Part shown: piece after piece, positions 7,578-22,649 of the stretch
Position numbering within the stretch: the stretch's first letter is position 1
Layout: each line of letters begins with the position of its first letter
From: a virus
Lineage: Duplodnaviria > Caudoviricetes
DNA: 34,029 bases
Direction: 5' to 3' (one strand)
IMG/VR virus record: IMGVR_UViG_3300042807_000447
Coordinates: 1 to 34,029 of that record
The notes under the pieces: generated by a model
Databases searched by the model: none
Told to the model about the DNA's origin: nothing
Seen by the model: the letters and a program-made list of their open reading frames with translations, nothing else
Translations under genes and position numbers: made by a program

Positions 7578-7589
7578 GTCACAGCTTAG

Positions 7590-7598
7590 TGATATAAT
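7590..7598 (+). promoter_or_regulatory. Extended -10 promoter element (TGnTATAAT) upstream of the nucleotide metabolism / polymerase operon
   Basis: TGATATAAT in the intergenic gap, followed by an AAGGA RBS and the ATG at 7625. Confidence 0.7.
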
Positions 7599-7624
7599 CA
7601 TTCTACAAAGACAAAAGGACGCAA

Positions 7625-8644
7625 ATGTTTATAGTTATTGAAGGCACGGACGCCTCAGGTAAGTCATCGCTTATCGAGGCAGTTCGGCAACAGCTTATAG
7701 AACGCTACCCTAACGAGCAACTGTCAGAGTTTCACAAGGGCAAGCCTGGCGAGGAGACTCGCCGCTGGGTTCTAAACGACTACGTTACGTCAATTGAAAA
7801 GCGCAACTGGTTGCGCTCCGTTGGTCTATCAGATCGTTGGCACTGGGGCGAGGTAACATACGCTCCAAAGTATCGCCCACACACAAACAACGATGGCTAC
7901 GGTTTACTTGGCAAGGCTGGCTGGCGCTGGGTTGAGCTGTTTCTTATGTCCCGTGGTGTTGCCCAATTTTGGCTTTATCAACCCTTAGAAGTGATCCAAG
8001 CGCGTCTAGAAGCCCGCGGAGATGAGTTCGTAAAGACCGATGACCTGCAGGAAATACTTGCACAATACGTTACCGCGTCTAACGTTTCTGTTCTTTCCGA
8101 CATCCTAAAACCAGACAGCGACAGCGTTGAACAGATACCAGCACTCGCAACCTACATAATTGACGTTGCTGGCCAGGTTGAAGAGTGCGCACGTCATCTT
8201 GAGCTATTCCCGTATTACATCGGAAACCCTAAGCCTAAGGTTCTACTCGTTGGCGACACACGCAATATAACTAAACGTTATGGCGAGGAAACTACCCTAC
8301 CTTTTATGCCAGTCGATGGCAACTCCGCAGAGTATCTACTTACCTCGCTGCCTGACGATCTCTGGCGCGACTGTGGAATCGTAAACATAAACGACCCAGA
8401 CGTCAAGCTTTCATTCAATGCTCTATGGAACCAACTAGGTTTCCCAAAGATAGTTGTACTCGGGCGTCTTGCCGAGAAGACACTGGCATCAATCCCAGTG
8501 GCTGAAGACTACTACACCGTGTTGCCTCACCCGCAATATGTGCGTAGGTTCTTTAACAAGACAAAGGAAGAATACGGACAGGCAATCGCACGGGTTGCCA
8601 ACGGCGAGACAAAAGGTAAGGAAGAGACATGGACACTGCGGTAA
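7625..8644 (+). CDS. Thymidylate-kinase-like dNMP kinase fused to a uracil-DNA-glycosylase-fold domain
   Basis: N-terminus has the IVIEGTDASGKSS P-loop, DRW motif and RLEARGDE lid. C-terminus has PKVLLVGDTRN, LPF, IVVLGRLA and LPHPQY, matching the UDG superfamily motif order. Confidence 0.75.
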   Translation: MFIVIEGTDASGKSSLIEAVRQQLIERYPNEQLSEFHKGKPGEETRRWVLNDYVTSIEKRNWLRSVGLSDRWHWGEVTYAPKYRPHTNNDGYGLLGKAGWRWVELFLMSRGVAQFWLYQPLEVIQARLEARGDEFVKTDDLQEILAQYVTASNVSVLSDILKPDSDSVEQIPALATYIIDVAGQVEECARHLELFPYYIGNPKPKVLLVGDTRNITKRYGEETTLPFMPVDGNSAEYLLTSLPDDLWRDCGIVNINDPDVKLSFNALWNQLGFPKIVVLGRLAEKTLASIPVAEDYYTVLPHPQYVRRFFNKTKEEYGQAIARVANGETKGKEETWTLR

Positions 8645-9492
8645 TTGAAATTAAGGACGGCGTCAACGGATATGTTGACCTAGTTCAGCACGTTTTGCGA
8701 CATGGCAAGGAGGTTGCTCCGCGCGGTCAAAAGACGCTTGAAATCGAAGATGCAATTATTCGCATTGACGACGTATACAACACTCTGCCAATGAACGTAA
8801 AGCGTAAGGCAGTCCCAGGTATCGGTGCCGTTGAGGCGTGTCAGCTTCTATCTGGCACGAGCTTCCCTGATCTTGTAATGATGGTTGGCCCACAGTTTAA
8901 GAACTACGCTGAGGATAACGGTGTGTTTCATGGAGCATACGGACCTCGCACAAATGGGCAGTACCACGCAGTTATTGAGCGTCTAAAGAATGACCCGGAC
9001 TCACGTCAGGCAGTCGTTACTATCTGGAATCCACAGTATGACCTTCAGTGGAACAAGCGTGATTATCCTTGCACGATCCTGCACCAGTTCCGTATCCGTG
9101 ACAACAAGTTGAACATGAGCGTTTACATGCGCTCAAACGATGTTTGGCTTGGTGCAGCCTATGACTTCTTCCAGTTTACACGCGTGCAGATCGCAATGGC
9201 ATCTGTCCTCGGAATTGAGCCTGGCAAGTATGCTCACCACGTTGGATCACTGCATATCTACGAGCAGCACTACGGCGTGGCTGAAGAACTAAAGTACACC
9301 GACAAGTTTACTGACATTCCTGTTATTACAGGACGCACATGGAACGAGGTTCAGTCAAGCTCTGTTCTTGCTCTGCATGGCAGCGTTGATCCAACCGCAT
9401 ATGTGCGTCTAACTGAAAACGAGAAATGGTACGCCGATGCAATGAAGGATGCCATCGAGAAGAACAAGGCTAAGGAACAGAATGACAAGTAA
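8629..9492 (+). CDS. Thymidylate synthase homologue, predicted dCMP-modifying (dCMP hydroxymethylase-like)
   Basis: AYGPR, DSRQAV, catalytic PC (C148), MRSNDVWLGAAYD with Asp179 at the base-specificity position, and GSLHIY. Confidence 0.8.
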   Translation: MDTAVIEIKDGVNGYVDLVQHVLRHGKEVAPRGQKTLEIEDAIIRIDDVYNTLPMNVKRKAVPGIGAVEACQLLSGTSFPDLVMMVGPQFKNYAEDNGVFHGAYGPRTNGQYHAVIERLKNDPDSRQAVVTIWNPQYDLQWNKRDYPCTILHQFRIRDNKLNMSVYMRSNDVWLGAAYDFFQFTRVQIAMASVLGIEPGKYAHHVGSLHIYEQHYGVAEELKYTDKFTDIPVITGRTWNEVQSSSVLALHGSVDPTAYVRLTENEKWYADAMKDAIEKNKAKEQNDK

Positions 9493-9664
9493 CCAGGATA
9501 TTCCGCAGTCCAGCGGAATAAGCGAGCTAAAGGTTGCGGCGATACAACTTCATGAAATGTACATGGAGTTTCGCGGCGCTGGTTTTACTCGTAGGGAAGC
9601 CTTATACCTTGTTGGAATAATTGTAGTTGAAGGGTCAGCAAAAGACAACGATGAGCGAAACTAA
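9482..9664 (+). CDS. Small hypothetical protein
   Basis: ATG at 9482 after AAGGA; overlaps both neighbours. The LHEMYMEFRGAGFTRREAL pattern resembles small actinophage proteins. Confidence 0.65.
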   Translation: MTSNQDIPQSSGISELKVAAIQLHEMYMEFRGAGFTRREALYLVGIIVVEGSAKDNDERN

Positions 9665-10130
9665 CACACCGCGTCCTTCCTGGGACAGCACCTGGATGCA
9701 TGTAGCTGAGACAATAGCTAAGCGTTCACGTTGTACCCGTGCGCAGGTTGGTGCAGTTGTAGTGTCTAGTCAACAGCGCATTAGCTCAACTGGGTACAAC
9801 GGTGCACCTGCTGGTTGGCCACATCAAAGCGACTGCATTGACTGGTGCCCACGCGCTAAAGGCGATGCCCCACTTGATCAGTTCTACGACGCGTGTCCAG
9901 CAATCCATGCTGAGGCAAACGCACTTCTATACGTAGATCGTTCTCAGGTCGAGGGTGGAACAATATATGTCACAGGTGCGTGTTGCATGCAGTGTGCAAA
10001 GCTCGTATCTAACTCAGGCGTATCACGCGTTGTCATGAAGGTGCGCAAGATCGACAAGCACCGTCACCCTGAAGAGGTTGTTGCATTTTTAGCTAAGTCA
10101 GGTTTAAGGGTGGAGACTATTGATGACTGA
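9651..10130 (+). CDS. dCMP deaminase (zinc-dependent cytidine deaminase fold)
   Basis: RPSWD, AKRSRC, VGAVVV, STGYNG, HAEANAL and CMQC motifs. Confidence 0.92.
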   Translation: MSETNTPRPSWDSTWMHVAETIAKRSRCTRAQVGAVVVSSQQRISSTGYNGAPAGWPHQSDCIDWCPRAKGDAPLDQFYDACPAIHAEANALLYVDRSQVEGGTIYVTGACCMQCAKLVSNSGVSRVVMKVRKIDKHRHPEEVVAFLAKSGLRVETIDD

Positions 10131-11946
10131 TGGTTTAGGTGATGTAAAACTCCACCTTGTAAACAACGTTGAGGAAGCACAAAACTTTCTGCGTTGGCTA
10201 GGTGAGCGTCGTCCACACAACGCTATTGCTATTGACACTGAAACTGGTGAAAATCCAGGAGGTGCTCGTAAGGATGCGCTTTCTCCATGGCACGGGCAAC
10301 TACGTCTAGTCCAGGTTGGTGATGGGCAGCAAGGTTGGTCAATTCCATGGAAGGAATGGTCAGGTGTTTTCTACGAGGCAATGAACAAGTTTGATGGACC
10401 CGTTGTCTGTCACAACATTGCGTTTGAGGCGCGTTGGTTTGATGTTCACTCGCACTGGAAGATGCCGTGGGAACGCGCACACGACACAATGATTATGGCG
10501 CACATCATTGACCCACTTGGTTCTGGTGCACTAAAGAACCTTGCGGCTTTGCACGTTGATGGTCGCGCAGTTGCATTACAGGAAACACTTGATATTGAAC
10601 TAGCAAAGAACGGCTGGACATGGGGAACTGTGCCTGTAGAGTTTCAACCGTACTGGGCATACGGTGCACTTGACACAGTTCTAACAATGCGCCTATGGGA
10701 AATGTTCTACGAGAAGTGCGGTCCTAACGGCGCATATCATCGCCCATATGAACTTGAAATGGCTGCCCGTAAGATCGTTACCCGCATGGAGATCAACGGC
10801 GCACGCATTGACCTCGATTACTCTAAGAAGAAGTTTGAAGAACTAAGCACATATGCCGATACGGTAAAGAACTGGGCAAAGCAAACCTATGGTGGTGTCT
10901 CGATTGGCAGCAACCAGCAACTAGTGCGCCTGCTTGAAAAGCTTGGTGCAGAGATTAACTCATACACGCCTTCTGGTCAAAAATCAGCCGACAAGGACGA
11001 GCTAAAGTTTCTTAGCATCAACGGTTCTCCTGAGGTTCAGCAGCTTGCGGATCTTGTTCTAAAGCAGCGCAAGGCTGACAAGCTTGCCAACACTTACTTT
11101 GCAAACTTTATCAACGATAACGTTGATGGCTTTGTGCACCCATCAGTAAAGACCCTTGGTGCTCGCACATCGCGTATGTCGATCCAAAACCCTGCACTAC
11201 AGACATTGCCTAAGGGTGACGACACGGTTCGTACCGCGTTTATTCCAAAGGACGAGGATCACGTCATTATTACGTCTGACCTTGACCAGGTTGAGTTTAG
11301 AATGTTTGCGTCATTGTCACAGGACCCAAATCTCATCACCTTGTTTAATCGCGCTGACGCGACTGGCTCAGATCCGTTTACCGAGATTGGTCGCGAGATC
11401 TATCAAGATCCAACAATGCAACGTTCTGATAAGCGACGCAATCTTATCAAGGGAACGGTATATGGACGTCTCTATGGTGCAGGCGTATCAAAGCAGGCAC
11501 TAACCGCAGGTGTACCTGAAGGACAGATGCGCACCGTATCTGACGCGTTTGATGAGCGTTTCCCAGGCATGTCGTTCTTCCAAAAACAAATTGAAGATGC
11601 AGGCATGCGCCGTCTAAAGTCTGAAGGACAAGGATATGTGTACACATGGACAGGTCGTCGCATTCCTTGTGACGAGGATCGTGCATACACGCTTGTCAAC
11701 TATCTAATTCAAGGTGGAGCCGCCGAGGTGTTCAAGCAAAACCTTATAAAGCTTGACGCAGCAGATCTAACAGAACTGCTAATCGTCCCGGTACACGATG
11801 AAATTGTTCTTAACGCACCACGTAAGGACGCTCATGAAATCATGCAAGTCGTGAAGGAATGCATGACTACAACCGAAGGCTGGGCAGTACCTCTTACTTC
11901 TGGCATTGATGGACCAATGGAAAACTGGGGAGAAAAATACAGATGA
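10123..11946 (+). CDS. polA: DNA polymerase family A with 3'-5' exonuclease, no 5'-3' exonuclease domain
   Basis: Exo motifs IDTET, HNIAFE and YGALD. Polymerase motif A DLDQVEFR, motif B RNLIKGTVYGRLYG, NYLIQG, and motif C VHDE. Confidence 0.95.
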   Translation: MTDGLGDVKLHLVNNVEEAQNFLRWLGERRPHNAIAIDTETGENPGGARKDALSPWHGQLRLVQVGDGQQGWSIPWKEWSGVFYEAMNKFDGPVVCHNIAFEARWFDVHSHWKMPWERAHDTMIMAHIIDPLGSGALKNLAALHVDGRAVALQETLDIELAKNGWTWGTVPVEFQPYWAYGALDTVLTMRLWEMFYEKCGPNGAYHRPYELEMAARKIVTRMEINGARIDLDYSKKKFEELSTYADTVKNWAKQTYGGVSIGSNQQLVRLLEKLGAEINSYTPSGQKSADKDELKFLSINGSPEVQQLADLVLKQRKADKLANTYFANFINDNVDGFVHPSVKTLGARTSRMSIQNPALQTLPKGDDTVRTAFIPKDEDHVIITSDLDQVEFRMFASLSQDPNLITLFNRADATGSDPFTEIGREIYQDPTMQRSDKRRNLIKGTVYGRLYGAGVSKQALTAGVPEGQMRTVSDAFDERFPGMSFFQKQIEDAGMRRLKSEGQGYVYTWTGRRIPCDEDRAYTLVNYLIQGGAAEVFKQNLIKLDAADLTELLIVPVHDEIVLNAPRKDAHEIMQVVKECMTTTEGWAVPLTSGIDGPMENWGEKYR

Positions 11947-12404
11947 TACACGTTTTAGCAGTAGACCCAGGCAAGGCAACCGGAATTGCCTTGTTCAAGT
12001 TTGAAGGACAGGAACCAGAGCTAGTCTGGTCAGGCGAGTACCAGCAACACGAATACGCAAAGCCGATCCGTGAGGCAATCTACGCGGCAAAGGCAATGGG
12101 ATACGTAATCGACATAACCTGTGAAAGATTTACCATCAATGCCCAAACTGTAAAGAACTCACAGGCTCCATACTCACTTGAGCAGATTGGTATCCTCAAG
12201 CAGATCATGATGGATAACGACCTAAACCACGAAAAGATCGCGTTCCAGTCACCTGCGGATGCAAAGGCAATGTTCCCAAACCCTGCCCTAAAGAAGCTGG
12301 AATACTGGCACAAGGGCGGCGAAGGTCACGCCCTAGATGCGATAAGACACGGATTACTACGGTGTGTCAAGCTAGGATGGAAGCCAACACGCCTGTTACA
12401 ATAG
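11943..12404 (+). CDS. RuvC-like Holliday junction resolvase
   Basis: VLAVDPGKATG, CERF, and a C-terminal HALDA; RNase H fold acidic residues; follows the polymerase. Confidence 0.75.
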   Translation: MIHVLAVDPGKATGIALFKFEGQEPELVWSGEYQQHEYAKPIREAIYAAKAMGYVIDITCERFTINAQTVKNSQAPYSLEQIGILKQIMMDNDLNHEKIAFQSPADAKAMFPNPALKKLEYWHKGGEGHALDAIRHGLLRCVKLGWKPTRLLQ

Positions 12405-12412
12405 TTTCAACA

Positions 12413-12458
12413 TACTAAGCAAAAAAGTAGTTTGCTTTAGTAAAATTCCTGATAGTAT
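12413..12458 (+). promoter_or_regulatory. Inverted repeat followed by an extended -10-like element upstream of the helicase
   Basis: TACTAAGCAAA (12413-12423) pairs with TTTGCTTTAGTA (12431-12442) with a one-base bulge; TGATAGTAT at 12450-12458. Confidence 0.5.
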
Positions 12459-12488
12459 GTATTTACGTAATGACGAAAGGATGGCGCG

Positions 12489-14294
12489 GTGCCAGTAGAA
12501 GTAGAGCTTGATGAATCAGGCAAGAACATAATCATCGCCACCGAGTGGCGGTACAAAGAGTTATGCAAGACCTTGCCTGGATCCAAGTGGGACCCTAAGC
12601 TACAGCAATGGCGAGTCCCTACATCATGGGCATCATGTCTTGCATTGCGCTCAACGTTTAAGACCGAGCTTGTGATTGGCCCTGGTTTGGCCGAGTGGGC
12701 TGGCAACGAAATGACCAAACGTATTACCCCAGCGAACGAACTTCGGGTCCTAGAGACCCTTGAGGACGCCTCTAATGAGGACCTATTTCCACACCAGCGC
12801 GCAGGCGTTGCGTTCCTTGCAACTGCAAAACGTGCGCTACTTGCTGACGAACCTGGACTAGGTAAAACAGCACAGGCAATCCGTGCACTAAAGAAACTAC
12901 AGGAAAATGGCGAGGAACCGTTCCCTGCACTAATCGTTTGCCCTAACACGCTAAAGAAAAACTGGAAGCGTGAGTTTGCAAGATGGTGGCCAGACGTAAA
13001 GGTTGAGGTTATCAAGGGATCAGCCAACCAACGCCGTAAGGTATTTGAGGAACAGGCTGACGTATACGTAATCAACTGGGAATCACTTAGATCCCACTCG
13101 CGACTTGCACCTTACGGATCAGTCGCACTTGCTCGTTGCACCGCCTGTGGCGGCCACGATGACAAGGTGACTGAAAACCGCTGCGAGGTACACGAACGCG
13201 AACTAAACACGATTAACTTTAACTCTGTAGTTGCAGACGAGATCCACCGCTCAAAGGAACCAAAGAGCAAGCAATCACGCGCCCTGTGGGCTGCAACAGG
13301 TGATGCACCAATTCGCTTTGCCCTTACAGGTACACCTATTGCAAACAACGTTCTTGATCTATGGTCAATCCTTCACTGGCTTGCACCTGAAGAGTGGCCA
13401 AGTAAAACTCGCTGGATTGACCGCATGGTTGACACAATGTTAAACGCGTTTGGTGGCATGATGGTTCTAGGTGTAAAGCCACACATGCAAACAGAGTTTG
13501 ACGCCACGTTAAATCCACGTATGCGTCGCATGCTAAAGTCGGTGGTGCTTCCTTGGCTACCGGAAATGATGTTCGAGCGACGTGACATCGAGATGTCAAC
13601 AAAGCAGGCAAAGGCTTACAAGCAAATGCGTGATCTTATGATTGCTGAGCTTGAAGGCGGAGATATTGTTACTGCGCCTTCGCCACTAACTCAAACAACA
13701 CGACTGCTGCAGTTTGCAAGCTCTTATGCTGAGATGGACGTTGACGAGACAACAGGTGAAAGCAAGGCACGTTTGACAGAGCCTTCCTGCAAGGTTGATG
13801 CTCTAATGGACGACATCAAGAACGGCGACTTTGGAAATGACAGCGTAGCTGTGTGTGCAGTATCGCGACAACTTATAGAGTTACTTAGCGCAGCACTAAC
13901 AAAGGAAAAGATCCAGCACGGTCTTATCACGGGTGCACAAACTGAGGACGAACGTCAACAAGCGGTTGACGATTTTCAATCTGGCAAGATCAAGTGGATC
14001 TTGTTTACGGCACAAGCTGGTGGTGTTGGAATTACACTTACAGCCGCACGTCGTCTAGTCATGCTGCAGCGTCCGTGGTCTCTTGTAGATCACAAGCAGG
14101 CGTTGGATCGTGTGCACCGTATTGGATCAGAGATTCACGATTCAATCATTGTCACTGACTATGTGACAGAAGGAACAGTCGAGGAGCGCGTCTTGCAGGT
14201 ACTCGAAACAAAGGCAGACAACTTTGAGGCTATCGTCCGCGATAAAGCGCAGTTGCTTGCATTACTCAAAGATGATAAGGCAGGAAACCTATGA
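12489..14294 (+). CDS. SNF2-family (SF2) DNA helicase
   Basis: LFPHQ Q-motif, LLADEPGLGKT Walker A, DEIH, ALTGTP, GGVGITL and QALDRVHRIG. Confidence 0.93.
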   Translation: MPVEVELDESGKNIIIATEWRYKELCKTLPGSKWDPKLQQWRVPTSWASCLALRSTFKTELVIGPGLAEWAGNEMTKRITPANELRVLETLEDASNEDLFPHQRAGVAFLATAKRALLADEPGLGKTAQAIRALKKLQENGEEPFPALIVCPNTLKKNWKREFARWWPDVKVEVIKGSANQRRKVFEEQADVYVINWESLRSHSRLAPYGSVALARCTACGGHDDKVTENRCEVHERELNTINFNSVVADEIHRSKEPKSKQSRALWAATGDAPIRFALTGTPIANNVLDLWSILHWLAPEEWPSKTRWIDRMVDTMLNAFGGMMVLGVKPHMQTEFDATLNPRMRRMLKSVVLPWLPEMMFERRDIEMSTKQAKAYKQMRDLMIAELEGGDIVTAPSPLTQTTRLLQFASSYAEMDVDETTGESKARLTEPSCKVDALMDDIKNGDFGNDSVAVCAVSRQLIELLSAALTKEKIQHGLITGAQTEDERQQAVDDFQSGKIKWILFTAQAGGVGITLTAARRLVMLQRPWSLVDHKQALDRVHRIGSEIHDSIIVTDYVTEGTVEERVLQVLETKADNFEAIVRDKAQLLALLKDDKAGNL

Positions 14295-15235
14295 CAGAAA
14301 TGACGCAAGGACCGTTGCGTATCTCAAACTCAGAGATACAGACCTTCAAGGATTGTCGTCGCAAGTGGTGGCTTAGCTACTACCGTCGCCTAAAGCCACG
14401 TGCGGAAAACATGACAGGCGCACTTGCGCTTGGTTCACGCGTTCACGCGGCGCTTGACGACTACTACAGCAAGGGAACGCCACTGCTTGAGGCGCACCGC
14501 TTCCACGTTGAAAAGGACCGCGCAGTACTTGAGGAACAGATGCGTGATACCTACGACCTGGACTCTGAGGCAGAGCTTGGCCGCATCATGCTTGAGGGTT
14601 ACCTTGACTGGGTTGAGGAAAACGGAATTGACTCAGAGTTGGACATGATCTCTACTGAAGAGATAATCGAGATGCCAATGTTTGACGGCAAGGTTATTCT
14701 TCAAGGCAAGATCGACATGCGTGTTCGTCGCAAGGCTGATGGTGTGCGTATGTTCCGCGACTTTAAGACTGTTGGTGGTTCGTTTACTGACTTTGCGTCA
14801 ATGGCGCACATGAATGAGCAGATCCTTACCTATATGACACTTGAGGCTGCACAGAACAAGGAAGGCGAACGATCAGAGGGCGGTATCTTCACAATGTTGA
14901 AGAAGGTAAAGCGTTCCGCAAATGCTCGCCCGCCGTTCTACGAGCAAATGGAAGTTCGTCACAATGTTTTCTCGCTGCGTAATTTTTGGCAGCGACTACA
15001 CGGCACAGTTAGCGACATGCTAGGTGTGCGCAAGGCTCTCGATGAGGGAGTATCACATCAACTTGTAGCGTATCCGCGTCCATCGCGTGACTGCAAGTGG
15101 AAGTGCCCATTTTTCGCTCTGTGCCCAATGTTTGACGACGGTAGCGCCGTTGAACAAGCACTTAGCGATTCATATGCGGTCGCCGACCCATATGGTTACT
15201 ACGGTAACACAGAAGAGAAAAAAGGAAGTGAGTGA
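14291..15235 (+). CDS. Cas4/RecB-like PD-(D/E)XK exonuclease
   Basis: SNSEIQTFKDCRRKW, GSRVH, GKIDM...DFKT, QILTY, and C-terminal CKWKCPFFALC (4-Cys Fe-S staple arrangement). Confidence 0.88.
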   Translation: MTEMTQGPLRISNSEIQTFKDCRRKWWLSYYRRLKPRAENMTGALALGSRVHAALDDYYSKGTPLLEAHRFHVEKDRAVLEEQMRDTYDLDSEAELGRIMLEGYLDWVEENGIDSELDMISTEEIIEMPMFDGKVILQGKIDMRVRRKADGVRMFRDFKTVGGSFTDFASMAHMNEQILTYMTLEAAQNKEGERSEGGIFTMLKKVKRSANARPPFYEQMEVRHNVFSLRNFWQRLHGTVSDMLGVRKALDEGVSHQLVAYPRPSRDCKWKCPFFALCPMFDDGSAVEQALSDSYAVADPYGYYGNTEEKKGSE

Positions 15236-15238
15236 CGT

Positions 15239-16006
15239 ATGTCAAACGAAGTACAGCGTTCCCTCACAATCATGGTGTATGGAGAGTCAAAGGTTGGTAA
15301 GTCAAGCTTTGCAGTAACCGCACCGTATCCTCGTCTCATGCTTGACGTTGAGGGTGGGCACCGATTCCTACCTATCAACGTAAAGTACTGGGACCCTCTG
15401 CGCGAGGAACCTCCCGTTGCAGATGGAACATGGGACACAGTGGTTGTGACGGTACGAGACTACGATGTAGTTCTCAAATCGTTCCAGTGGCTGCAAACTG
15501 GTAAGCATCAGTTTAAGTCATTGATCATCGATTCAATCTCAGAGCTTCAAGTGAAGTGTATGGATTCAATCGCAGGTACCGAGCAAATGAAGATGCAGCA
15601 ATGGGGTGAACTGCTACGTCACATGGGTGCGCTATTGCGCGATCTACGTGACCTAACAATGCACCCAACACAACCGCTAGAAGCTGTTGTGCTAACTGCA
15701 ATGGCACGACCAGGACAGGACGGTCGCATGCGTCCGTACCTACAGGGTCAGCTAGCAATTCAGGCTCCGTACTTCTACGACATTCTTGGCGCTATAAACG
15801 TTGAGACTGTACCTAACCCTGATCCACTGCAACCTCCGTTCAAGGTTCGTCGCATGTACGTCGAGCGCACAGATACTTATGAAGCTGGCGAGCGCGTTCA
15901 AGGTCGTCTTGGCAAGGTAGTAGAACAGCAAGATCTCGGCATTGAAAGAATGCTGGATATGGTTTTCGGAGAGAAAGCCGCAAGCAAGAAAAAAGCAGCG
16001 TCCTAG
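15239..16006 (+). CDS. Sak4-like AAA ATPase (phage recombination / annealing protein)
   Basis: VYGESKVGKS Walker A, LDVEGG and IIDSISE Walker B; sits between exonuclease and SSB as in Sak4 modules. Confidence 0.8.
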   Translation: MSNEVQRSLTIMVYGESKVGKSSFAVTAPYPRLMLDVEGGHRFLPINVKYWDPLREEPPVADGTWDTVVVTVRDYDVVLKSFQWLQTGKHQFKSLIIDSISELQVKCMDSIAGTEQMKMQQWGELLRHMGALLRDLRDLTMHPTQPLEAVVLTAMARPGQDGRMRPYLQGQLAIQAPYFYDILGAINVETVPNPDPLQPPFKVRRMYVERTDTYEAGERVQGRLGKVVEQQDLGIERMLDMVFGEKAASKKKAAS

Positions 16007-16043
16007 CCAAGTCGGTTAGCGCAATACATAAGGAGAAAACACA

Positions 16044-16613
16044 GTGAGTACACTCAACTGGGGCGACCTGGTAAAGGACGCCGGAGAAGTCGGTGGCAAC
16101 TACGAGCCACTTCCTGATGGTGATTATGACCTTCAGATTATCGAAGCAACTGCAAAGGTTGCACAGTCAGGTAAGACCATGTTTGCCGTAAAGGCGCAGG
16201 TTACAGCAGGAGCGCACGCAAAGCGTCTTGTTTGGGATAACCTAGTGGTTACACCTGACAGTCCTGCTGCGCTTGGCATGTTCTTCCGCAAGATGGCAGC
16301 AGTCGGTCTTGGTCGCGAGTTCTTCGCATCAAACCCAAGCAACGCACAAATCGAGGCAGCTCTTCAGAACCGTACATTCCGTGCACAGATTGGTTCACGC
16401 ACATGGAACGGCTCTAAGAAGAACGAAATCAAGATGTACTACGTTGCAACTGCAGGAGCTACTGGTACTACAGCTGCCGCTGCGGCAGCGCCTGCACCAG
16501 CACCTGCACCTGCCCCAGCGGCAGCACCTGCTCCTGCACCAGCAGCGGCACCAGCACCAGCAGCGGCGGACGTTCCACCAGCTCCACCTGCACCACCAGC
16601 TGCTCCGTTCTAA
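16044..16613 (+). CDS. Single-stranded DNA-binding protein (DUF669-like) with Ala/Pro-rich tail
   Basis: YEPLPDGDY...SGKTM...VWDNL...NEIK pattern, terminal PF, strong AAGGAG RBS, and position after the Sak4-like gene. Confidence 0.75.
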   Translation: MSTLNWGDLVKDAGEVGGNYEPLPDGDYDLQIIEATAKVAQSGKTMFAVKAQVTAGAHAKRLVWDNLVVTPDSPAALGMFFRKMAAVGLGREFFASNPSNAQIEAALQNRTFRAQIGSRTWNGSKKNEIKMYYVATAGATGTTAAAAAAPAPAPAPAPAAAPAPAPAAAPAPAAADVPPAPPAPPAAPF

Positions 16614-16620
16614 ATCAACA

Positions 16621-16676
16621 ATCGTCTGGTATCATCGTCCATGGCGCAAATGCGTCATGGGCGGTGATCCAACGAT
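16621..16676 (+). promoter_or_regulatory. Long intergenic RNA stem-loop (terminator-like or processing site)
   Basis: ATCGT-c-TGG-t-ATCATCGTCCATGGCGC-aaat-GCGTCATGGGCGGTGAT-CCA-ACGAT: about 25 bp stem with three G-U pairs and two single-base bulges. Confidence 0.7.
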
Positions 16677-16688
16677 AAGGGAGAACAA

Positions 16689-17900
16689 ATGAAAATCTTA
16701 ATGACAGGCTTTACGGCCTTACAGATCAACACGGAACGACGCACAATACAAAAGATTGACGTTCCTGCGCATGTCGCAAAGGCAATGCAAGACCTCGGTC
16801 ACGAGATTGATTGGCGTAAGGTCACACCTGGCGAGGACCTGTCAGGTTACGACATGGCTTGGATAAATCTTGCACCACTAAACTCGCTAAACGGACGTCA
16901 AGGTGCGATGGGTGCACTTTACACTTTATCTTCAGGATTACCTGCGGTCGGATTTTTTGACGACTGGCAGTTCAACACAGTTTTCAATGGCGCAAAGGCT
17001 CTTATGCGCAAACCGCAGATGCTGTATAAGCACCTTCTTGTTGGCACGGAACATCGCGGTGAAGAGGGCGCAACTTACTTTAGTCGTGCAGATATTGAGG
17101 CAGCGCTTGAGCGTGTCCGTGAGAAGGACCCAGAGGCTGCTAAGAAATGCTACATCGAGCGTTACTACATGATGGACACTGATGAAAGCGTCAAGCCTTA
17201 CGAAAAACAACTAGTGCAGACAGCGATTGACATGCTTGACGCACGTTGGGCTGCTGGTATGGTTCCAGTTTGCCCGATGTATGCGTGGGGTGATAGAACA
17301 GGTGTGCGCAAACGTATGCCAAAGGACGTTGGTCGTATCGAGGCACTTGACCCTACCAGCGTTGTGTTTGACACGCTTGCGGCGGTAACACCAACTCCGC
17401 CAGAGAAGAAGGAAAAGGCTTGGGTACTTGGCGCGTTGATGCCACATGATACTTGGCTTGAAAAGAAAAACCCAGGTTGGCCGGTTGAGATCGTTGGCAG
17501 TCGTAAGCTAATCCGCAAACTTGGTGGACAGCGTCTTGACACAGAGCTTGACGTTCTAAACTTCTACAATGACCGTTGGGGAATTCTGTCACCACCGTAT
17601 CCACATGCTGGTTCAGGCTGGTGGCGTTCACGATTCCTATATGCTGCGCGCATTGGTTCTATTCTTGTCACTGACAAGGGTGAGGGCGATCCGCTAGGTG
17701 ACGCGTATAAGCTAACAATTGCTGACGTTGAAAAGATGAATACCGAGGAACTGGCAGCTGCTGCACAGGCGCAGGCTGACGCATTGCGCCCATACATTGG
17801 AACATACGACATGTTCAAGGATCACATACAGAACATTCTTACTCGTACCATGCAAGAAGACAGAGGACTAAAGCTAAACGCGGATGGAACTAGAGCATGA
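16689..17900 (+). CDS. Putative GT-B fold glycosyltransferase 1 (candidate DNA base glycosyltransferase)
   Basis: Rossmann-like start MKILMTG...AMQDLGHEIDW, FFDDW, and C-terminal GILSPPY...WWRSRFLYAARIGSILVTD resembling the GT-B C-domain R-x-x-x-A-x-x-x-G...TD pattern. Confidence 0.6.
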   Translation: MKILMTGFTALQINTERRTIQKIDVPAHVAKAMQDLGHEIDWRKVTPGEDLSGYDMAWINLAPLNSLNGRQGAMGALYTLSSGLPAVGFFDDWQFNTVFNGAKALMRKPQMLYKHLLVGTEHRGEEGATYFSRADIEAALERVREKDPEAAKKCYIERYYMMDTDESVKPYEKQLVQTAIDMLDARWAAGMVPVCPMYAWGDRTGVRKRMPKDVGRIEALDPTSVVFDTLAAVTPTPPEKKEKAWVLGALMPHDTWLEKKNPGWPVEIVGSRKLIRKLGGQRLDTELDVLNFYNDRWGILSPPYPHAGSGWWRSRFLYAARIGSILVTDKGEGDPLGDAYKLTIADVEKMNTEELAAAAQAQADALRPYIGTYDMFKDHIQNILTRTMQEDRGLKLNADGTRA

Positions 17901-18940
17901 AAAAGATACTTATAACTGGAATGTCCGCGTCACAGGCATCACTAAACGCCAATAGACGCTCGCTTTCCTTTGCAGGTGTAATTCATGATGTTCTTGTTGA
18001 ATCAGGACACGAGGTCGTCATGTGTGACCCACGTGTTAGCTGGTCACTTGAAGACGTTGAAGAATACTCTGCGGTGATTGTTGGTGTCTCACCGATAACA
18101 AGTCTTAGCGCAAACAAGGCATATGGTGCACTAAACCTAATTGACCTTCTGTGGGAAGATCCGCGCCTACGCCTATTAGTTGACGCACCGCACCCGGCAC
18201 AGATAAGTGCCAGTCTACGGTCGGTGCATACTAACCCGGCAAACCTCACTAAGCCTTTTTACACATACCGCCAGGGATATCAGTTAGCTGCCAGCGAAAG
18301 TGTCTCTAGGAGGCTTCTAGGGACAGTAGACAGGCTTCTAAACGATACCTGGCCAGGAACAATCTACCCATCGTTGCCTTGGCGCGATTCATTCCTTGTG
18401 TCTGATGAATTGCCTGCTGGAGCTCGAAGCGGGATAATTGGAATAAATCTAGACTCATTTCTTGTGGCTGAAAGCGCGCCAAAAGGCGACGTTGAAAAGA
18501 TTGCTAAGTGGGTAGCGGACAACAGGACATCTGCCTGGACAAAGAAGGTTGAAAAAACACTTGCACTTCCAGTATCGCCAATGAAACACACGAAGGGTGA
18601 AGATGATAGACAGGTTAGCAGTCAAATTCTGCGATCTGTTGGATCACTGATTTCGCCACACAGGGACGGGACATGGTGGACATATCGCTACATCCAGTCA
18701 CTAAACCTCGGTGTTCCCGTTGCGACTGACTGGAAGGAAAGCCAGCACATTGGTAATTCATGGAGTGTTCTTGCGGCAACAATTGAACACCTAAGTGACG
18801 GTGCGCGACGCGATCTTGCGTGGGATCAGTTGCAGGATTACATGTCGGCAATTCCGCGACGTGAAAATGTTAGAAAGACGCTTGAAGATCTGCTAGGTCT
18901 TCATTCCAAAATAGGAAAGGAAGCATATGCTGTTCGATAG
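17897..18940 (+). CDS. Putative GT-B fold glycosyltransferase 2 (paralogue of the upstream gene)
   Basis: MKKILITG...LVESGHEVV, SPITSL...GAL, and GSLISPH...WWTYRYIQSLNLGVPVATD align with the upstream protein. Confidence 0.6.
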   Translation: MKKILITGMSASQASLNANRRSLSFAGVIHDVLVESGHEVVMCDPRVSWSLEDVEEYSAVIVGVSPITSLSANKAYGALNLIDLLWEDPRLRLLVDAPHPAQISASLRSVHTNPANLTKPFYTYRQGYQLAASESVSRRLLGTVDRLLNDTWPGTIYPSLPWRDSFLVSDELPAGARSGIIGINLDSFLVAESAPKGDVEKIAKWVADNRTSAWTKKVEKTLALPVSPMKHTKGEDDRQVSSQILRSVGSLISPHRDGTWWTYRYIQSLNLGVPVATDWKESQHIGNSWSVLAATIEHLSDGARRDLAWDQLQDYMSAIPRRENVRKTLEDLLGLHSKIGKEAYAVR

Positions 18941-19409
18941 TTGGTTACGCAGAACAAAGGATCTTCAGAGAGATGTTTACTTCATCAACTATGAAGAGAT
19001 GGAGGGCGATAAGGACGCAAATATCCGTCGCCTTGTCGAGTACATGCGGTGGAACATGCTAGCCATTGATGACGAACTCGCAGAGATGCGTCAGGCAATC
19101 TCGTGGAAGCCTTGGCAGCACGACAAACCATACGCAGATCGCGAAGAGATCATCAAGGAAGCGGTTGACGTTTTACACTTTGTCGCAAACATCATTGTTG
19201 CGGCTGGTGGAACAGACGAGCAACTAAACAAGTTCTACGTTGAGAAGATGGAAAAGAACAGGCAACGTCAACTCAATGGTTATAAGGTAAAAGAGATCGG
19301 CGTCAAGTGTGGCATCTGCTCACGCGCAATTGACGACGTAGGTGAAGGCAGACGCCTCGGTGTTTGCGCAAAGTGTGAGCCAATAATCGAAGGAGAAACA
19401 AATGCCTAA
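18927..19409 (+). CDS. All-alpha dNTP pyrophosphatase (dimeric dUTPase / dCTPase-like) with C-terminal zinc ribbon
   Basis: DDELAEM...WKPW...KEAVDVLHF...YVEKMEKNRQRQ family motifs; C-terminal CGIC...CAKC. Confidence 0.85.
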   Translation: MLFDSWLRRTKDLQRDVYFINYEEMEGDKDANIRRLVEYMRWNMLAIDDELAEMRQAISWKPWQHDKPYADREEIIKEAVDVLHFVANIIVAAGGTDEQLNKFYVEKMEKNRQRQLNGYKVKEIGVKCGICSRAIDDVGEGRRLGVCAKCEPIIEGETNA

Positions 19410-19824
19410 CATTGATGAACAGTGGGTGCGCTCACAGTTTGAGGCCGCAAAGGTAAAGGTTGCGTCTGGAAAGGCAGTGCTTGAGCTACTAAAAACCTGG
19501 GAAGGTATTGACCTTAGCGAGAAGCAGGCAAAGGAAGCCGTAGAGATATTCTCTAAGGTTGCGCTGAACTACGCGCTCATAGAACCGCCAGTAAAGAATG
19601 AAAGATGGGAACCTCTGCGTCCAGGGTTTATTACCGTTGGCGACGAGGTACGCGTTGTGCATGACGCCTATGAAGGAGATCTAGGCAGAGTACACAACGG
19701 ACGTCGTGGAAAGGTGGTTGCAGTTCGCTACGGTGACGTGATCTTTAAGTCAACTGATGGAAAGAGCCCAGTACTTGACGGTGCGCACTACACACCGTAT
19801 AAGCTAGAGAAGTTGGTTTCGTAA
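19402..19824 (+). CDS. Hypothetical protein with possible SH3/KOW-like C-terminal domain
   Basis: AAGGAG RBS; VGDEVRV...GRRGKVVAVRYGDVIF. Confidence 0.7.
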   Translation: MPNIDEQWVRSQFEAAKVKVASGKAVLELLKTWEGIDLSEKQAKEAVEIFSKVALNYALIEPPVKNERWEPLRPGFITVGDEVRVVHDAYEGDLGRVHNGRRGKVVAVRYGDVIFKSTDGKSPVLDGAHYTPYKLEKLVS

Positions 19825-20012
19825 TGAGAACCACCTTTGAGTTCGAGGCAACTGGCACATCCCACGAGGAACTTCAGCGTAAGGCTGAGGAGCTTGTTGC
19901 ACGATACCTCAACATTGAATTGGATTCGGTTGAGTCCAAGACCGACATTGAAATGAACGTCAAGGCGGAAAATGATGTATTTACCGCAAAGGTACACGTA
20001 AGGATAAAGTGA
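19824..20012 (+). CDS. Small hypothetical protein
   Basis: 62-aa ORF translationally coupled on both sides. Confidence 0.65.
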   Translation: MRTTFEFEATGTSHEELQRKAEELVARYLNIELDSVESKTDIEMNVKAENDVFTAKVHVRIK

Positions 20013-20320
20013 TGAGTGAAGAACAGACAACAAGTAACCCTGCCCGCGTTGAAGCCTTACGTGAAGCTGCCCGTCTAATCAGCGGTGAACGCGACGCGCA
20101 GTACGGAAGCCCTGGAGATAACTTTGCGCGTATTGCAAAGATCTGGTCAGTGGTTCTCGGAATAACCGTCAGCGAGGAAGACGTAGCAATGTGCATGGTA
20201 GGTCTCAAGATGGCGCGCTACGCAAGCAAGTCTGGTTTCCAACCTGACACCTGGATTGACATCGCGGGGTACGCAGGTTGCGGCTACGAGGTTGGAAACG
20301 ACCTGTCCAAAAAGAACTAA
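20012..20320 (+). CDS. DUF6378-like protein (small helical phage protein, often near nucleotide metabolism genes)
   Basis: LREAARLISGERDAQYGSPGDNFARIAKIW...LKMAR...DTWIDIAGYA signature. Confidence 0.8.
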   Translation: MSEEQTTSNPARVEALREAARLISGERDAQYGSPGDNFARIAKIWSVVLGITVSEEDVAMCMVGLKMARYASKSGFQPDTWIDIAGYAGCGYEVGNDLSKKN

Positions 20321-20396
20321 AAACAGTACCATAAATGCAGACATAAGCTGCCTTCTCAGTATAAGGTCCTCTATAGGATAAACTACGGAGGCAACG

Positions 20397-21668
20397 ATGA
20401 GCAACCCTACTTTTGTTGACTGTAATGGCTTAGCTGGGTTTATGAGTCTTGGGCTTATCAAGTCCGGAATGCAAATGGTTGGTCGCACAGGTACGCTGAA
20501 CTTTGGTAACCCGCTTGCTGAGGCAAACAGAAACTACCTTGGAAACCAGTGGGGAACGTTCTTTAGCGATGACTCAGACGAGTGGCCAGTACACAAGGTT
20601 GACGTTGTTGCTGGTTGTCCTCCATGCTCTGGCTGGTCTGTATGGTCAGGTCCTGCAAATCGCGGTCCTGATTCTGCGGCGCACGAGCACACGCGTGCGT
20701 TCATGCGCTATGCCGCAAGAGTAAAGCCTAAGATGATTGCCTTTGAGTGTGTGCAGCCCGCGTACACAACTGGGCGTGCGGTTATGGTTAAGTACCGCGA
20801 CATGGTCGAGGAACTGTCAGGCAAGAAGTACGACCTATACCACGTCAAACATAACAACCTTCAGCTTGGTGGATTCTCATATCGACCTCGCTACTTCTGG
20901 GTAGCAGTTGAATCCGGAATGAAGTTTGGCGCTGCGGTGACAGAACCAACTCGGCTTCCACGTATCATGGACATCATCGGTGATCTTGCAAAGCTTCCAC
21001 AGACATGGAATCCGCAGCCGTACCTAGACGAACCTGGTCCATACGTAAAACACCTAAAGTCAAAGACCGGAACAGTCAACGGTCACATTGGTAAGGAAAG
21101 TATTCACACCCAAAGAATCCAGGAAGTGTTTGATCTTATTGGCAACACTGGTTGGCCAGGCAACGGTGATCTTGGATCTGCGGTGAAGAAGGCCGTTGAC
21201 ATGAACGGCGGAAAGTTTCCACAGAAGTGGATTGACATTGAGCCACGCCTACGCCGCCGCGACTTTAAGCTAGGTTTCTCCCAGCCGTATCGCTGGAAGG
21301 AAGATCACTGGTGTAACGTGCTAACAGGCTCCGCGCTCGAGGGTGTAATTCACCCAACGGAACCAAGACTTATTACACACCGTGAGGCTGCACGCATGCA
21401 AGGCTTACCTGACGACTGGGACATTGAAGGTGCAAAGGATTACTCAAGCCTAAAGGCTGTATGGGGCAAGGCTGTTCCATTGCAGGCTGCCACATGGCTT
21501 GGAGAGGCTCTCACTGCCTCCCTGAGCGGACAACCTAACGGTGACCAAGGTGAACTAATCGGCGAGCGCGAATACCTATTAGACCTTGATAAGGGCTTTT
21601 CTCGACATGCGGTGAAAAGAAAGTACTACCCTGAGGCAATTGAAACCGTGGTGCCAAGTGACAAGTGA
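20397..21668 (+). CDS. Divergent DNA C5-cytosine methyltransferase homologue with altered cofactor-binding motifs
   Basis: Motif IV GCPPCSGWS, motif VI FECV, motif VIII YRPRYFW, motif IX RLITHREAARMQGLPD, motif X WGKAVP; motif I degenerate (DCNGLAGF). Confidence 0.85.
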   Translation: MSNPTFVDCNGLAGFMSLGLIKSGMQMVGRTGTLNFGNPLAEANRNYLGNQWGTFFSDDSDEWPVHKVDVVAGCPPCSGWSVWSGPANRGPDSAAHEHTRAFMRYAARVKPKMIAFECVQPAYTTGRAVMVKYRDMVEELSGKKYDLYHVKHNNLQLGGFSYRPRYFWVAVESGMKFGAAVTEPTRLPRIMDIIGDLAKLPQTWNPQPYLDEPGPYVKHLKSKTGTVNGHIGKESIHTQRIQEVFDLIGNTGWPGNGDLGSAVKKAVDMNGGKFPQKWIDIEPRLRRRDFKLGFSQPYRWKEDHWCNVLTGSALEGVIHPTEPRLITHREAARMQGLPDDWDIEGAKDYSSLKAVWGKAVPLQAATWLGEALTASLSGQPNGDQGELIGEREYLLDLDKGFSRHAVKRKYYPEAIETVVPSDK

Positions 21669-21942
21669 GAAGAACACATACCCTTGCTGCGAGCGTTGCT
21701 GGGTAAAGGACAACTCGCGTTGGGAGCCAGACGGCGTCAGTGAACAGGGTGAACTTACCACCAAGTTAACGGCGGTCGCGGTTCCGGTGTTTCTTCAACT
21801 CGGTACCGTGAACATCTGCTCAACCTGCGGTGACGTAACGGTTGTTGGCATCTACCGTGATCTTGAGGAGGACGAGGTCCAATATGACGTTGATCCACTT
21901 GCGGTTGCAGATGGCGACGAGATACCACCGTTCCTGATATAA
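21640..21942 (+). CDS. Small putative zinc-binding protein
   Basis: CERC...CSTC pairs and an acidic tail; overlaps the MTase 3' end. The start may be the GTG at 21658. Confidence 0.6.
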   Translation: MKPWCQVTSEKNTYPCCERCWVKDNSRWEPDGVSEQGELTTKLTAVAVPVFLQLGTVNICSTCGDVTVVGIYRDLEEDEVQYDVDPLAVADGDEIPPFLI

Positions 21943-21943
21943 T
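21935..21943 (+). promoter_or_regulatory. Extended -10 promoter element (TGnTATAAT)
   Basis: TGATATAAT followed by an AAGGA RBS and the GTG at 21974. Confidence 0.65.
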
Positions 21944-21973
21944 TAGACTAAGACAAAATGACGAAGGACAACA

Positions 21974-22501
21974 GTGCAAACATTCATGCAGCAGACAGAC
22001 TCGTTCGAGCGCATTGCCGCGGAGCTTGATAACAAGCGCCTACACAAGCAAACCCTTGAAGGCTGGCAATGTCTACTTGCTCTAACCAAGCTTAACCCAC
22101 AAGGCGAGTTCCGCGACCCTAAAGGCTGGGTCAACCACCCTGTTGCGCACATGTGGCGTGGGCACGAAGCCCTGCTAGTTTCCTACCTTGCCGCGACATA
22201 TTTTGAGTGGCGTAAGCGTGGCTTCAAGTCAACCATGCTTGAAAAGATCTACGGCACATTTGACATTGCAGTCGACCGTGGCTTGATATCACCGGATATC
22301 ACCTTCCCGATATGGATGTCGGACAAGGACAAGTTTGAACAGGTAGCGGCAACACACCGTGTATCACTGCTGCGCAAGGACTACGCCTGGTATTCACAGT
22401 TTGGCTGGGCAGAAGACCCAGGCGAGCGCCCTCCGTACTACCAGTACCTATGGCCTGACGCAAACGGCAACTTATACCTCGGTACCTATAACAACATGTA
22501 G
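21974..22501 (+). CDS. Pyrimidine-dimer DNA glycosylase / DenV-like protein (MSMEG_6728-like family)
   Basis: MQTF...LDNKRLHKQTLE...GWVNHP...MWRGHE...EWRKRG...THRVSLLRKD...YLWP signature. Confidence 0.8.
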   Translation: MQTFMQQTDSFERIAAELDNKRLHKQTLEGWQCLLALTKLNPQGEFRDPKGWVNHPVAHMWRGHEALLVSYLAATYFEWRKRGFKSTMLEKIYGTFDIAVDRGLISPDITFPIWMSDKDKFEQVAATHRVSLLRKDYAWYSQFGWAEDPGERPPYYQYLWPDANGNLYLGTYNNM

Positions 22502-22520
22502 TTTGGCCTTTTAGGCCAAA
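22502..22520. terminator. Perfect 8-bp hairpin directly after a stop codon; possible terminator
   Basis: TTTGGCCT-ttt-AGGCCAAA; no downstream U-tract on either strand. Confidence 0.4.
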
Positions 22521-22649
22521 AAGCGAGGCTCTCAGACGCCCGTAGAGACACTTTCACGACCTGTCCTGATAGTTTCCATGGGCCAAAATTATAGGAAATT
22601 ACCGCCCTACCTTGTTCGCTTTGAGTACAACTCGATATACAATGTATCT

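Follow-up and report, generated by a model that had tools for sequence, protein, structure and literature searches.

A predicted T4-like hydroxymethylcytosine glycosylation block with a rebuilt C5-methyltransferase-fold protein in an uncultured virus

T-even phages combine a dCMP hydroxymethylase, a dNMP kinase, a dCTPase and glucosyltransferases to make glucosyl-5-hydroxymethylcytosine, and T4 cytosine-DNA nucleases attack host DNA. The IMG/VR virus record IMGVR_UViG_3300042807_000447, analysed here over its whole 34,029 nucleotides (the window), carries a long block of genes between positions 7625 and 22501 that raises the question of whether its phage also modifies cytosine, and what a protein with the fold of a DNA cytosine C5-methyltransferase (MTase) does in such a block. 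A first-pass annotation had proposed a differently built cytosine hypermodification pathway. A hydroxymethylcytosine-type thymidylate synthase (TS) homologue, GT-B glycosyltransferases (GTs), a gp56-like pyrophosphatase, co-occurrence across phages and relaxed avoidance of restriction sites bear this out; a part for the DenV-like and DUF6378 genes and the novelty of the combination are not supported, and the MTase is unlikely to be a decorating enzyme. We regard it as probable, from the sequence-based evidence below, that the block replaces cytosine with 5-hydroxymethylcytosine (5hmC) and glycosylates it in the manner of T4, with a PolA polymerase.

The core of the block and the enzymes that would act with it

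The window is a linear record, about 26% complete and with about 49% GC, and it contains tail genes and a WhiB gene. Its source is an uncultured phage, likely of lake actinobacteria. DSL-LC01, a lake actinophage assembled from a metagenome, is the nearest annotated relative; it keeps the gene order, and its core enzymes are 51-81% identical. The cultured Gordonia phages related to the window, from the Forza, GodonK and GMA2 groups, stand further away. An open reading frame (ORF) check and family scans recovered every gene named in the first-pass annotation, in place and on the + strand. The genes from 7107 to 23524 form one co-oriented block with intergenic gaps of at most 84 nt and overlaps at 13 of 21 junctions. 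The genes that matter most for the question are the following.

7625..8644, + strand: dNMP (thymidylate-type) kinase fused to a domain of uracil-DNA glycosylase (UDG) fold (residues about 190-339); core gene; phrog_761, E 5.8e-13
8629..9492, + strand: predicted dCMP hydroxymethylase of TS fold; core gene; PF00303, E 4.5e-29
9627..10130, + strand (start maybe the ATG at 9651): dCMP deaminase; PF00383, E 1.2e-20; phrog_174
10120..11946, + strand: PolA, family A DNA polymerase with 3'-5' exonuclease; PF00476, E 1.5e-55, and PF01612
16689..17900, + strand: GT1, GT-B glycosyltransferase; model with a predicted local distance difference test score (pLDDT) of 86.9; T4 beta-glucosyltransferase (BGT) at Foldseek rank 2
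17897..18940, + strand: GT2, faster evolving GT-B paralogue; Atlas 0.95; GT-B by structure
18927..19409, + strand: dimeric dUTPase / T4 gp56-like dNTP pyrophosphatase; core gene; PF08761
20397..21668, + strand: C5-MTase-fold enzyme with a rebuilt cofactor pocket; core gene; PF00145; model pLDDT 88.8

A TS homologue with the residues of a dCMP hydroxymethylase

The TS homologue was aligned with E. coli ThyA, T4 gp42 and RB69 gp48 taken from annotated records. In ThyA numbering it keeps C146 and D169 and carries L143D, H147T and N177D, and its best sequence match in the PDB is the CMP hydroxymethylase MilA. According to the accessible part of PMC13326640, D177 selects dCMP, an acidic residue at 143 accompanies non-methyl products, and D169N marks 5-hydroxy-dCMP synthases; in the available portion of PMC8670742, Asp177 is found mostly in contigs physically selected for modified cytosine. 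Because the protein combines D143, D169 and D177, it reads under the PMC13326640 rules, as far as that portion of the paper gives them, as a dCMP hydroxymethylase, with dCMP as the predicted substrate and a hydroxymethyl rather than a methyl or 5-hydroxy product. The homologue had been called dCMP-type from the outset, and these residues make it cytosine-specific with a hydroxymethylase signature. A 5-hydroxycytosine pathway was considered and rejected, since D169 is kept here (RSND, as in T4; RSQN in RB69).

The pyrophosphatase shares 31% identity with T4 gp56 over 107 columns (pairwise E 3e-11), in agreement with its first description as dCTPase/dUTPase-like, and is likely a dCTPase-dUTPase judged by its sequence.

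The UDG assignment of the domain fused to the kinase is more distant. Taken alone, the C-terminal domain matches Pfam UDG (PF03167) at E 0.0026 and 18.3 bits, below the cut-off of 24.3; a Pfam UDG match was obtained for 3 of 35 aligned members of the kinase-fused domain, a profile of the domain found no UDG among PDB sequences, and a Pfam UDG search of genomes gave matches in only 3 of 36 records. F227, N254 and H302-P-Q are conserved in 52-54 of 58 aligned rows, and the F, N and H may be those of the uracil pocket. The Atlas score of the domain is 0.88, a lead only. The domain adjoins 41 of 50 TS loci (1.5 kb flanks; some misses may reflect truncation), and full-length matches of the fusion are found in DSL-LC01 and as gp315 of Bacillus phage G.

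No ThyX was found in the window or its closest complete relatives, and only 5 of 32 near-complete relatives have one. The dTMP therefore probably comes from the host thymidylate synthase, fed with dUMP by the phage deaminase.

Two GT-B glycosyltransferases near T4 BGT

GT1 and GT2 are 23% identical over 360 columns (E 1e-8) and, by structure, are both GT-B proteins near T4 BGT, as expected of the two paralogous GT-B-like genes first noted. Neither matched Pfam, including PF09198, at E 0.01. In VIA-align the GT1 model superposes on T4 BGT with Z 16.2 and a root mean square deviation of 4.2 over 302 aligned residues, a top score tied with SenB and PimA. The nearest named Atlas clusters to GT2, at 0.95, are T4-Gluco-transf and Glyco_trans_1_2, and GT2 shares 183 features with an Atlas cluster that is 100% PF09198 T4-Gluco-transf. 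In a weak hidden Markov model match (E 0.015), D92 of GT1 is aligned with the catalytic D100 of BGT, and GT2 has an alanine there. GT1 is likely the first sugar transferase for DNA 5hmC, and GT2 may add a second sugar or serve a different acceptor.

Homologues of GT1 adjoin a UDP-galactopyranose mutase (UGM) gene in DSL-LC01, in L101 and in Erwinia phage FBB1, a T4-like phage whose second TS homologue resembles T4 gp42. In the window no UGM or other sugar-nucleotide gene was found, and in the complete relative G001, 44 of whose ORFs were scanned, none of these is a nucleotide-sugar enzyme. A host sugar nucleotide is for these reasons the default donor; we propose a host nucleotide-hexose, with glucose as the default guess. 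Distant relatives carry GT-like, UGM, NTP transferase-kinase, SIS isomerase, RGP mutase and epimerase genes in the slot between the single-stranded DNA-binding protein (SSB) and the pyrophosphatase.

Several observations concern these transferases in other phages. The FBB1 locus (L082:7937-10062), with its GT1 homologue, UGM and gp42-type synthase, suggests galactofuranosyl-hmC in that phage. Matches to GT1 in Aeromonas T4-like phages cover only its first 123 residues. In nine loci of close relatives (L019, L035-L039, L042, L058 and L059) GT1 stays 75-82% identical, and the second transferase, elsewhere about 48% identical to GT2, has been exchanged for one of only 22-24% identity. A family of about 444 amino acids (L238:5484-6815 and 48 related ORFs), whose representative has no Pfam match, occupies the GT position at 32 of the 80 MTase clusters, where its neighbours are NTP transferase-kinase, SIS isomerase, RGP mutase or epimerase genes; it is probably another DNA glycosyltransferase family, one that uses pentoses.

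Avoidance of restriction sites

If cytosine is shielded in the virion DNA, restriction sites that contain cytosine should escape purging. This was followed with C-containing 6-bp palindromes having an expectation of at least 8, a palindrome being counted as purged when observed at 15% of expectation or less. Eight genomes with the system, some of them partial, were set against four hand-picked actinophages without a TS homologue, with kinship left uncorrected. Purged palindromes made up 2 of 359 tests in the genomes with the system and 32 of 181 in those without. Among phages isolated on G. malaquae, GMA2, which has the system, purges 0 of 53, compared with 12 of 47 for GMA3 and 6 of 44 for GMA7. 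AT-only palindromes are still avoided (observed/expected 10/26 in the window, 102/170 in G001, where ATTAAT stands at 0/18.7, and 176/229 in G002), and the pattern suggests that the protected base is C and not T. Palindromes of 4 bp did not separate the groups. The control ReqiPepy6 (L424-L427), which is without a TS homologue, has AATATT 4 times where 36.5 are expected and may have other protection.

Co-occurrence across phages

The neighbourhoods of the MTase family were surveyed in 232 loci, 231 of them with a scored gene, which fall into 80 clusters at 70% identity. Sixty MTase-family records, picked by length, were searched for a TS homologue; it was present in 50, and the ten misses are fragments. 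Exactly one TS homologue occurs in each of the 31 MTase-family records that are at least 90% complete. Both D169 and D177 are present in all 64 TS homologues read (50 from the records and 14 inside loci), distant phages included; the co-occurrence that had been named among the checks on the pathway is found for the D177 synthase and the MTase.

The coupling to D177 holds across GT-type and kinase/amino-acid-transferase-type cassettes. Near the 80 MTase clusters, the decorating genes are the family of about 444 amino acids with nucleotide-sugar enzymes (32 clusters), the GT1/GT2 family (8) or hmU-kinase and amino-acid:DNA transferase genes (9), two clusters falling into two classes; no decorating gene was found within the fetched flanks of 33 clusters, some of them short fragments. 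The gp56-like pyrophosphatase lies near 46 clusters and a MazG-like family near 12. The GT slot is a swappable cassette, and there are probably several new bases in the group, among them hmC decorated by way of kinase and amino-acid transferase. Because the MTase is kept when the decorating genes are swapped, it belongs to the cytosine-replacement core and not to the sugar step, and a role for it as a decorating enzyme for this sugar is unlikely. DenV-like and DUF6378 genes, which had also been counted as pathway parts, are near only 4 and 8 of the 80 clusters and are therefore passengers.

Synteny among the closer kin carries a different weight. In the best 80 of 120 loci found with GT1, and counting those long enough for each gene, no gene of the block is ever missing: the TS homologue is present in 17 of 17, GT2 in 65 of 65, the MTase in 38 of 38 and the DenV-like gene in 32 of 32; this is whole-genome order among kin and no independent proof of a pathway.

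Most or all of the core is common to cultured Gordonia phages (Forza, Mareelih, GodonK, GMA2 and others), Kurnik of Micrococcus and Bacillus phage G. The MTase itself is not present in T4, RB69 or FBB1, is present in Kurnik, and is divergent in phage G. The gene combination, which had at first not been recognised from a characterised phage, is accordingly not confined to the window; contigs with ThyS and GT-B are moreover a described class in the accessible part of 10.1101/2023.12.21.572611. The paper on DSL-LC01 (PMC10611076), in its accessible part, takes the MTase for an ordinary methylase and assigns the mutase to the cell wall. Our literature search, outside whose coverage one likely relevant paper and some supplements fell, gave no report on base modification in these phages or on the MTase family.

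Cassettes of another kind were seen in G003 (L139/L140, e.g. L140:6022-9581), G004 (L181) and G007 (L197), which have the D177 TS and no GTs. The GTs are replaced there by hmU-kinase, amino-acid:DNA transferase, DSP phosphatase, HAD and FkbM genes, and in some by inositol-1-phosphate synthase; by sequence these cassettes suggest phospho-activated hypermodification of hmC. To our knowledge, phospho-activated hypermodification is known only for hmU.

The proposed pathway and its relation to known systems

In the pathway that we propose, the gp56-like pyrophosphatase would remove dCTP and dUTP, and the TS homologue would convert dCMP to hm-dCMP. The fused kinase would raise this to hm-dCDP and a host kinase to hm-dCTP, which PolA would incorporate. 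GT1 would then place a sugar on the hydroxymethyl oxygen, and GT2 a second sugar or sugars at other sites. The dUMP used by the host thymidylate synthase would come from the deaminase, and uracil would be excised by the UDG domain.

The logic is that of the T4 glucosyl-5hmC pathway (gp56, gp42, gp1, Cd and alpha- and beta-glucosyltransferase), with which the block shares identical diagnostic TS residues, a gp56-like pyrophosphatase, a dCMP deaminase and GT-B proteins near BGT. Unlike T4, the window has PolA and not PolB, a thymidylate-kinase-type enzyme fused to a UDG-fold domain in place of a gp1-type kinase, GTs that Pfam leaves outside PF09198, and the MTase-fold enzyme. RB69, DLP3 and RL38JI, which have glycosylated 5-hydroxycytosine according to the accessible part of PMC13326640, likewise use a TS homologue, a nucleotide kinase and several GT-B proteins, and the same portion of that paper allows a further likeness to the UGM or arabinose nucleotide-sugar genes of the window's relatives. 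In contrast to the RB69 type, the TS homologue here is without D169N, and the predicted handle is hydroxymethyl, not hydroxy.

Bacillus phage G has a comparable region, gp301-gp319 (NC_023719 219303-234494; L418, L441), with the kinase-UDG fusion gp315, the deaminase gp317, a D143/D169/D177 TS homologue (gp319), two alpha-glucosyltransferase-like genes, a nucleotidyltransferase and the divergent MTase-family protein gp301. It differs from the window in its GTs, in having its own nucleotide-sugar gene, in a DnaE-like polymerase, and in gp301, which is without the motif X Lys. No literature on phage G nucleosides was found.

Several points weigh against the pathway as drawn. The profile comparison of GT1 with T4 BGT is not significant (probability 0.7%); the GT-B fold is very common, SenB and PimA tying with BGT; and the acceptors of GT1 and GT2 could be other than DNA, a separate GT2-family gene with TPR repeats and fibre genes lying just downstream. 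Dimeric dUTPases are common too, and the dCTP specificity of the pyrophosphatase is a prediction. In the palindrome comparison, G001 still purges CCATGG and CGTACG, the control ReqiPepy6 purges only 1 of 42 C-containing palindromes, AT-only avoidance is not general (DSL-LC01 6-mers 28/25), and only four hand-picked controls were used. The searched literature yielded no nucleoside analysis of these phages.

If the pathway holds, it predicts glycosylated hmC in a large and abundant group of actinobacterial phages, for which no chemical report was found in the literature. The core can be tested in the cultured members GMA2, Forza, Mareelih, GodonK, Kurnik and phage G.

The C5-methyltransferase-fold protein

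The MTase-fold protein was first described as non-canonical, and this is borne out by its cofactor pocket. Its best structural matches are DNMT1/MET1, with CmoX at rank 50, and residues were assigned from an alignment with Dcm and CmoX. It keeps C77 (Pro-Cys), E117 of motif VI, which reads ECV and not ENV, and R163 and R165 of the motif VIII RxR. In the FxGxG motif, the Phe is replaced by N10 and the first Gly by L12; the motif II Glu is G32, and the motif X Asn is K358. Profile comparison with Dcm was weak or not significant, and a viral scan with the Mareelih MTase as query gave no match.

The changes are a property of the family, which comprises 171 clusters at 50% identity (E up to 1e-30). 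Counts were made on the best 150 of 455 representatives with E up to 1e-10. The catalytic residues are kept (Cys in 123/125, Glu in 141/142, the two Arg in 145/147 and 147/147), and the motif X Lys is present in 140/147. The FxGxG Phe remains in 2 of 120 sequences and the first Gly in 1 of 120. The motif II Glu is kept in 83/125, and Gly takes its place in 64/64 close relatives of the window protein; position 30 (R30 in the window protein) is Lys or Arg in 110/124. The family is nevertheless annotated as an ordinary methylase, although it lacks the SAM (S-adenosylmethionine) motif.

Variants of the family were also seen. Nine members (P0266, P0287, P0289, P0312, P0324, P0329, P0366, P0386 and P0387) are fused to a second part, which is an FkbM-type or other class I methyltransferase or else a 5-hmdU kinase helical domain. 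A low-scoring subgroup (L247-L255) has PRC for PPC, keeps the motif X Lys and lies beside Pam3-like genes; the genes for a D177 TS, a kinase, a deaminase and PolA follow immediately downstream.

Since the MTase is tied to the replacement of C and not to the decoration, we favour an enzyme that acts on unmodified C. According to the accessible part of PMC3804486, replacement of the FxGxG Phe and Gly (F17S and G19D in M.SssI; F38S and G40D in M.HpaII) severely impairs methylation, and C-to-U deamination in vivo increases when the Gly is replaced in either enzyme. The same portion reports that C5-MTases without SAM deaminate C to U, and that an amine-bearing SAM analogue speeds the reaction by a disputed mechanism. 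The window protein has lost the same two FxGxG residues with its catalytic residues intact; unlike those engineered, slowly deaminating mutants, as described there, its change is natural, family-wide and accompanied by an invariant Lys, and its activity is predicted.

By analogy with these mutants we tentatively propose, as the weakest step of the scheme and one that we hold to be doubtful, that the MTase-fold protein is a SAM-independent C-to-U deaminase of unmodified cytosine. It would deaminate host or mis-incorporated C, K358 itself supplying the proton at C5, and the uracil would then be excised; the invariant Lys beside C5 and the UDG domain of the fusion are the reasons for a C-to-U-to-abasic route, which, directed at host DNA, would be a functional stand-in for the T4 cytosine-DNA nucleases. 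The wider analogy, that this widespread phage family has abandoned SAM and consists of dedicated DNA cytosine deaminases that destroy host DNA with the kinase-UDG and recycle its nucleotides, and that are safe only in hmC phages, is likewise a speculative one that may well not hold.

The deaminase step meets several difficulties. The known deamination side reaction is slow, and a role of C5 protonation is disputed, according to the accessible part of PMC3804486. With the motif II Glu in 83/125, many members may bind an adenosyl cofactor. The phage G relative gp301 is without the motif X Lys, and Mareelih and Kurnik have the MTase without a UDG fusion.

A post-replicative C5 hydroxymethyltransferase, which would act on leftover C and take up formaldehyde or methylene-tetrahydrofolate in its basic pocket (R30, K358), is rather unlikely. 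It accounts for the coupling to an hm-dCMP synthase under any decoration, and it agrees with the intact catalytic residues and with the Lys or Arg at position 30. The dCTPase, however, should already hold dCTP low, and we know of no folate-binding C5-MTase.

We also think it improbable that the enzyme acts on the 5hmC of phage DNA through its Cys-C6 adduct, coupling an anionic nucleophile or stripping the hydroxymethyl group at chosen sites to give a second modified base. M.MpeI becomes covalently linked to 5hmC DNA and strips off its hydroxymethyl group, and the fusions to FkbM-type methyltransferases or the 5-hmdU kinase helical domain would suit such a role, but the MTase stays the same whichever of the unrelated decorating cassettes accompanies it, and it and the GTs would be rivals for one hydroxyl.

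It is also unlikely that the protein still makes 5mC with SAM by way of an unusual pocket, or that it is a CmoX-like carboxymethyltransferase. The C5-MTase fold with its best matches to DNMT1/MET1 and the family members that keep the motif II Glu speak for it. So does K358, which aligns with R350 of CmoX, the enzyme of Synechococcus phage S-B43 that likewise has the C5-MTase fold and a basic residue at the HhaI N304 position, and which mirrors the engineered M.MpeI N374K (accessible part of PMC12783734). The FxGxG motif, however, is lost throughout the family, all 64 close relatives have Gly in place of the motif II Glu, and a link to D177 synthases would not be expected of an ordinary methylase. 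The window protein is 22% identical to CmoX, which, in the portion of that paper available, keeps the adenosine-binding F25, E47 and F48. A model of CmoA found none in 32 near-complete phage records and none in DSL-LC01 or Mareelih; of its controls, S-B43 was positive, and C. glutamicum gave no match. A CmoX-like carboxymethyltransferase as the leading explanation was rejected on these CmoA negatives and on the alignment with CmoX, in which the F25, E47, F48 pocket is not kept.

Whichever of deamination, hydroxymethyl transfer or coupling holds, it would be new chemistry for the C5-MTase fold. If it is deamination, evolution would have made an enzyme out of a side reaction known so far only from SAM-starved or mutant methylases. 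The MTase-fold enzyme is possibly a useful tool for telling C from hmC.

Less likely readings: other acceptors or another base

That the DNA holds plain 5hmC or 5mC, and that both GT-B proteins glycosylate virion proteins or small molecules, is quite unlikely. The tie of DNA and non-DNA glycosyltransferases in the fold matches allows it, as do the 33 of 80 MTase clusters with no decorating gene in their fetched flanks, some short. The GTs nevertheless lie in the replication operon, in a slot held elsewhere by the DNA-decorating hmU-kinase/amino-acid-transferase genes, and a GT1 homologue stands with UGM in the T4-like FBB1, which has a gp42-type synthase.

A modified base at T, in which the adjacent deaminase would turn hm-dCMP into hm-dUMP and hmU would replace thymine and then be glycosylated, is very unlikely: the deaminase gene does adjoin the synthase gene, the nearest cultured non-actinophage TS matches include SPO1-type phages, and HMUDK and ADDT, families named for hmU chemistry, occur in some relatives, but the window, G001 and G002 continue to avoid AT-only palindromes, the MTase retains its cytosine-reading Glu and Arg, and T4 pairs a dCMP deaminase with gp42 for dTMP supply.

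Neighbouring genes and further observations

The remaining genes of the block are listed here.

11943..16613, + strand: RuvC-like protein (label from the DSL-LC01 orthologue), SNF2 helicase, PD-(D/E)XK exonuclease, Sak4-like annealase and SSB; replication/recombination
19402..20012, + strand: two conserved hypothetical genes (140 aa and 62 aa), kept in close relatives
20009..20320, + strand: DUF6378 protein; PF19905; accessory, not core
21974..22501, + strand: DenV-like / MSMEG_6728-like glycosylase (Pyr_excise); PF03013; NF038085 at 79 bits, below the cut-off of 100; accessory

The genes at 11943..16613, which lie between the two halves of the operon, are replication and recombination genes and not modification enzymes. 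Scans of the Pfam and PHROG type gave no family match for the two proteins of 19402..20012. The DenV-like glycosylase most likely serves UV repair. Promoter and terminator scans of the window gave signals at or below the level of shuffled sequence, and a tRNA scan of the window found none.

At 23466-24542 (- strand), at the end of an opposite-strand fibre operon, the window encodes a glycosyltransferase of the GT2 family with TPR repeats, likely a virion-protein glycosyltransferase unrelated to DNA. Well away from its replication block, the complete relative G001 (L112:4500-6631) encodes an S-adenosylmethionine decarboxylase and also a class I methyltransferase. Elsewhere in the window, a tail protein at 4837-6669 (+ strand) combines a collagen stretch and an S74 chaperone domain with long decapeptide repeats, and a virion protein of 1931 aa is encoded at 27398-33193 (- strand).

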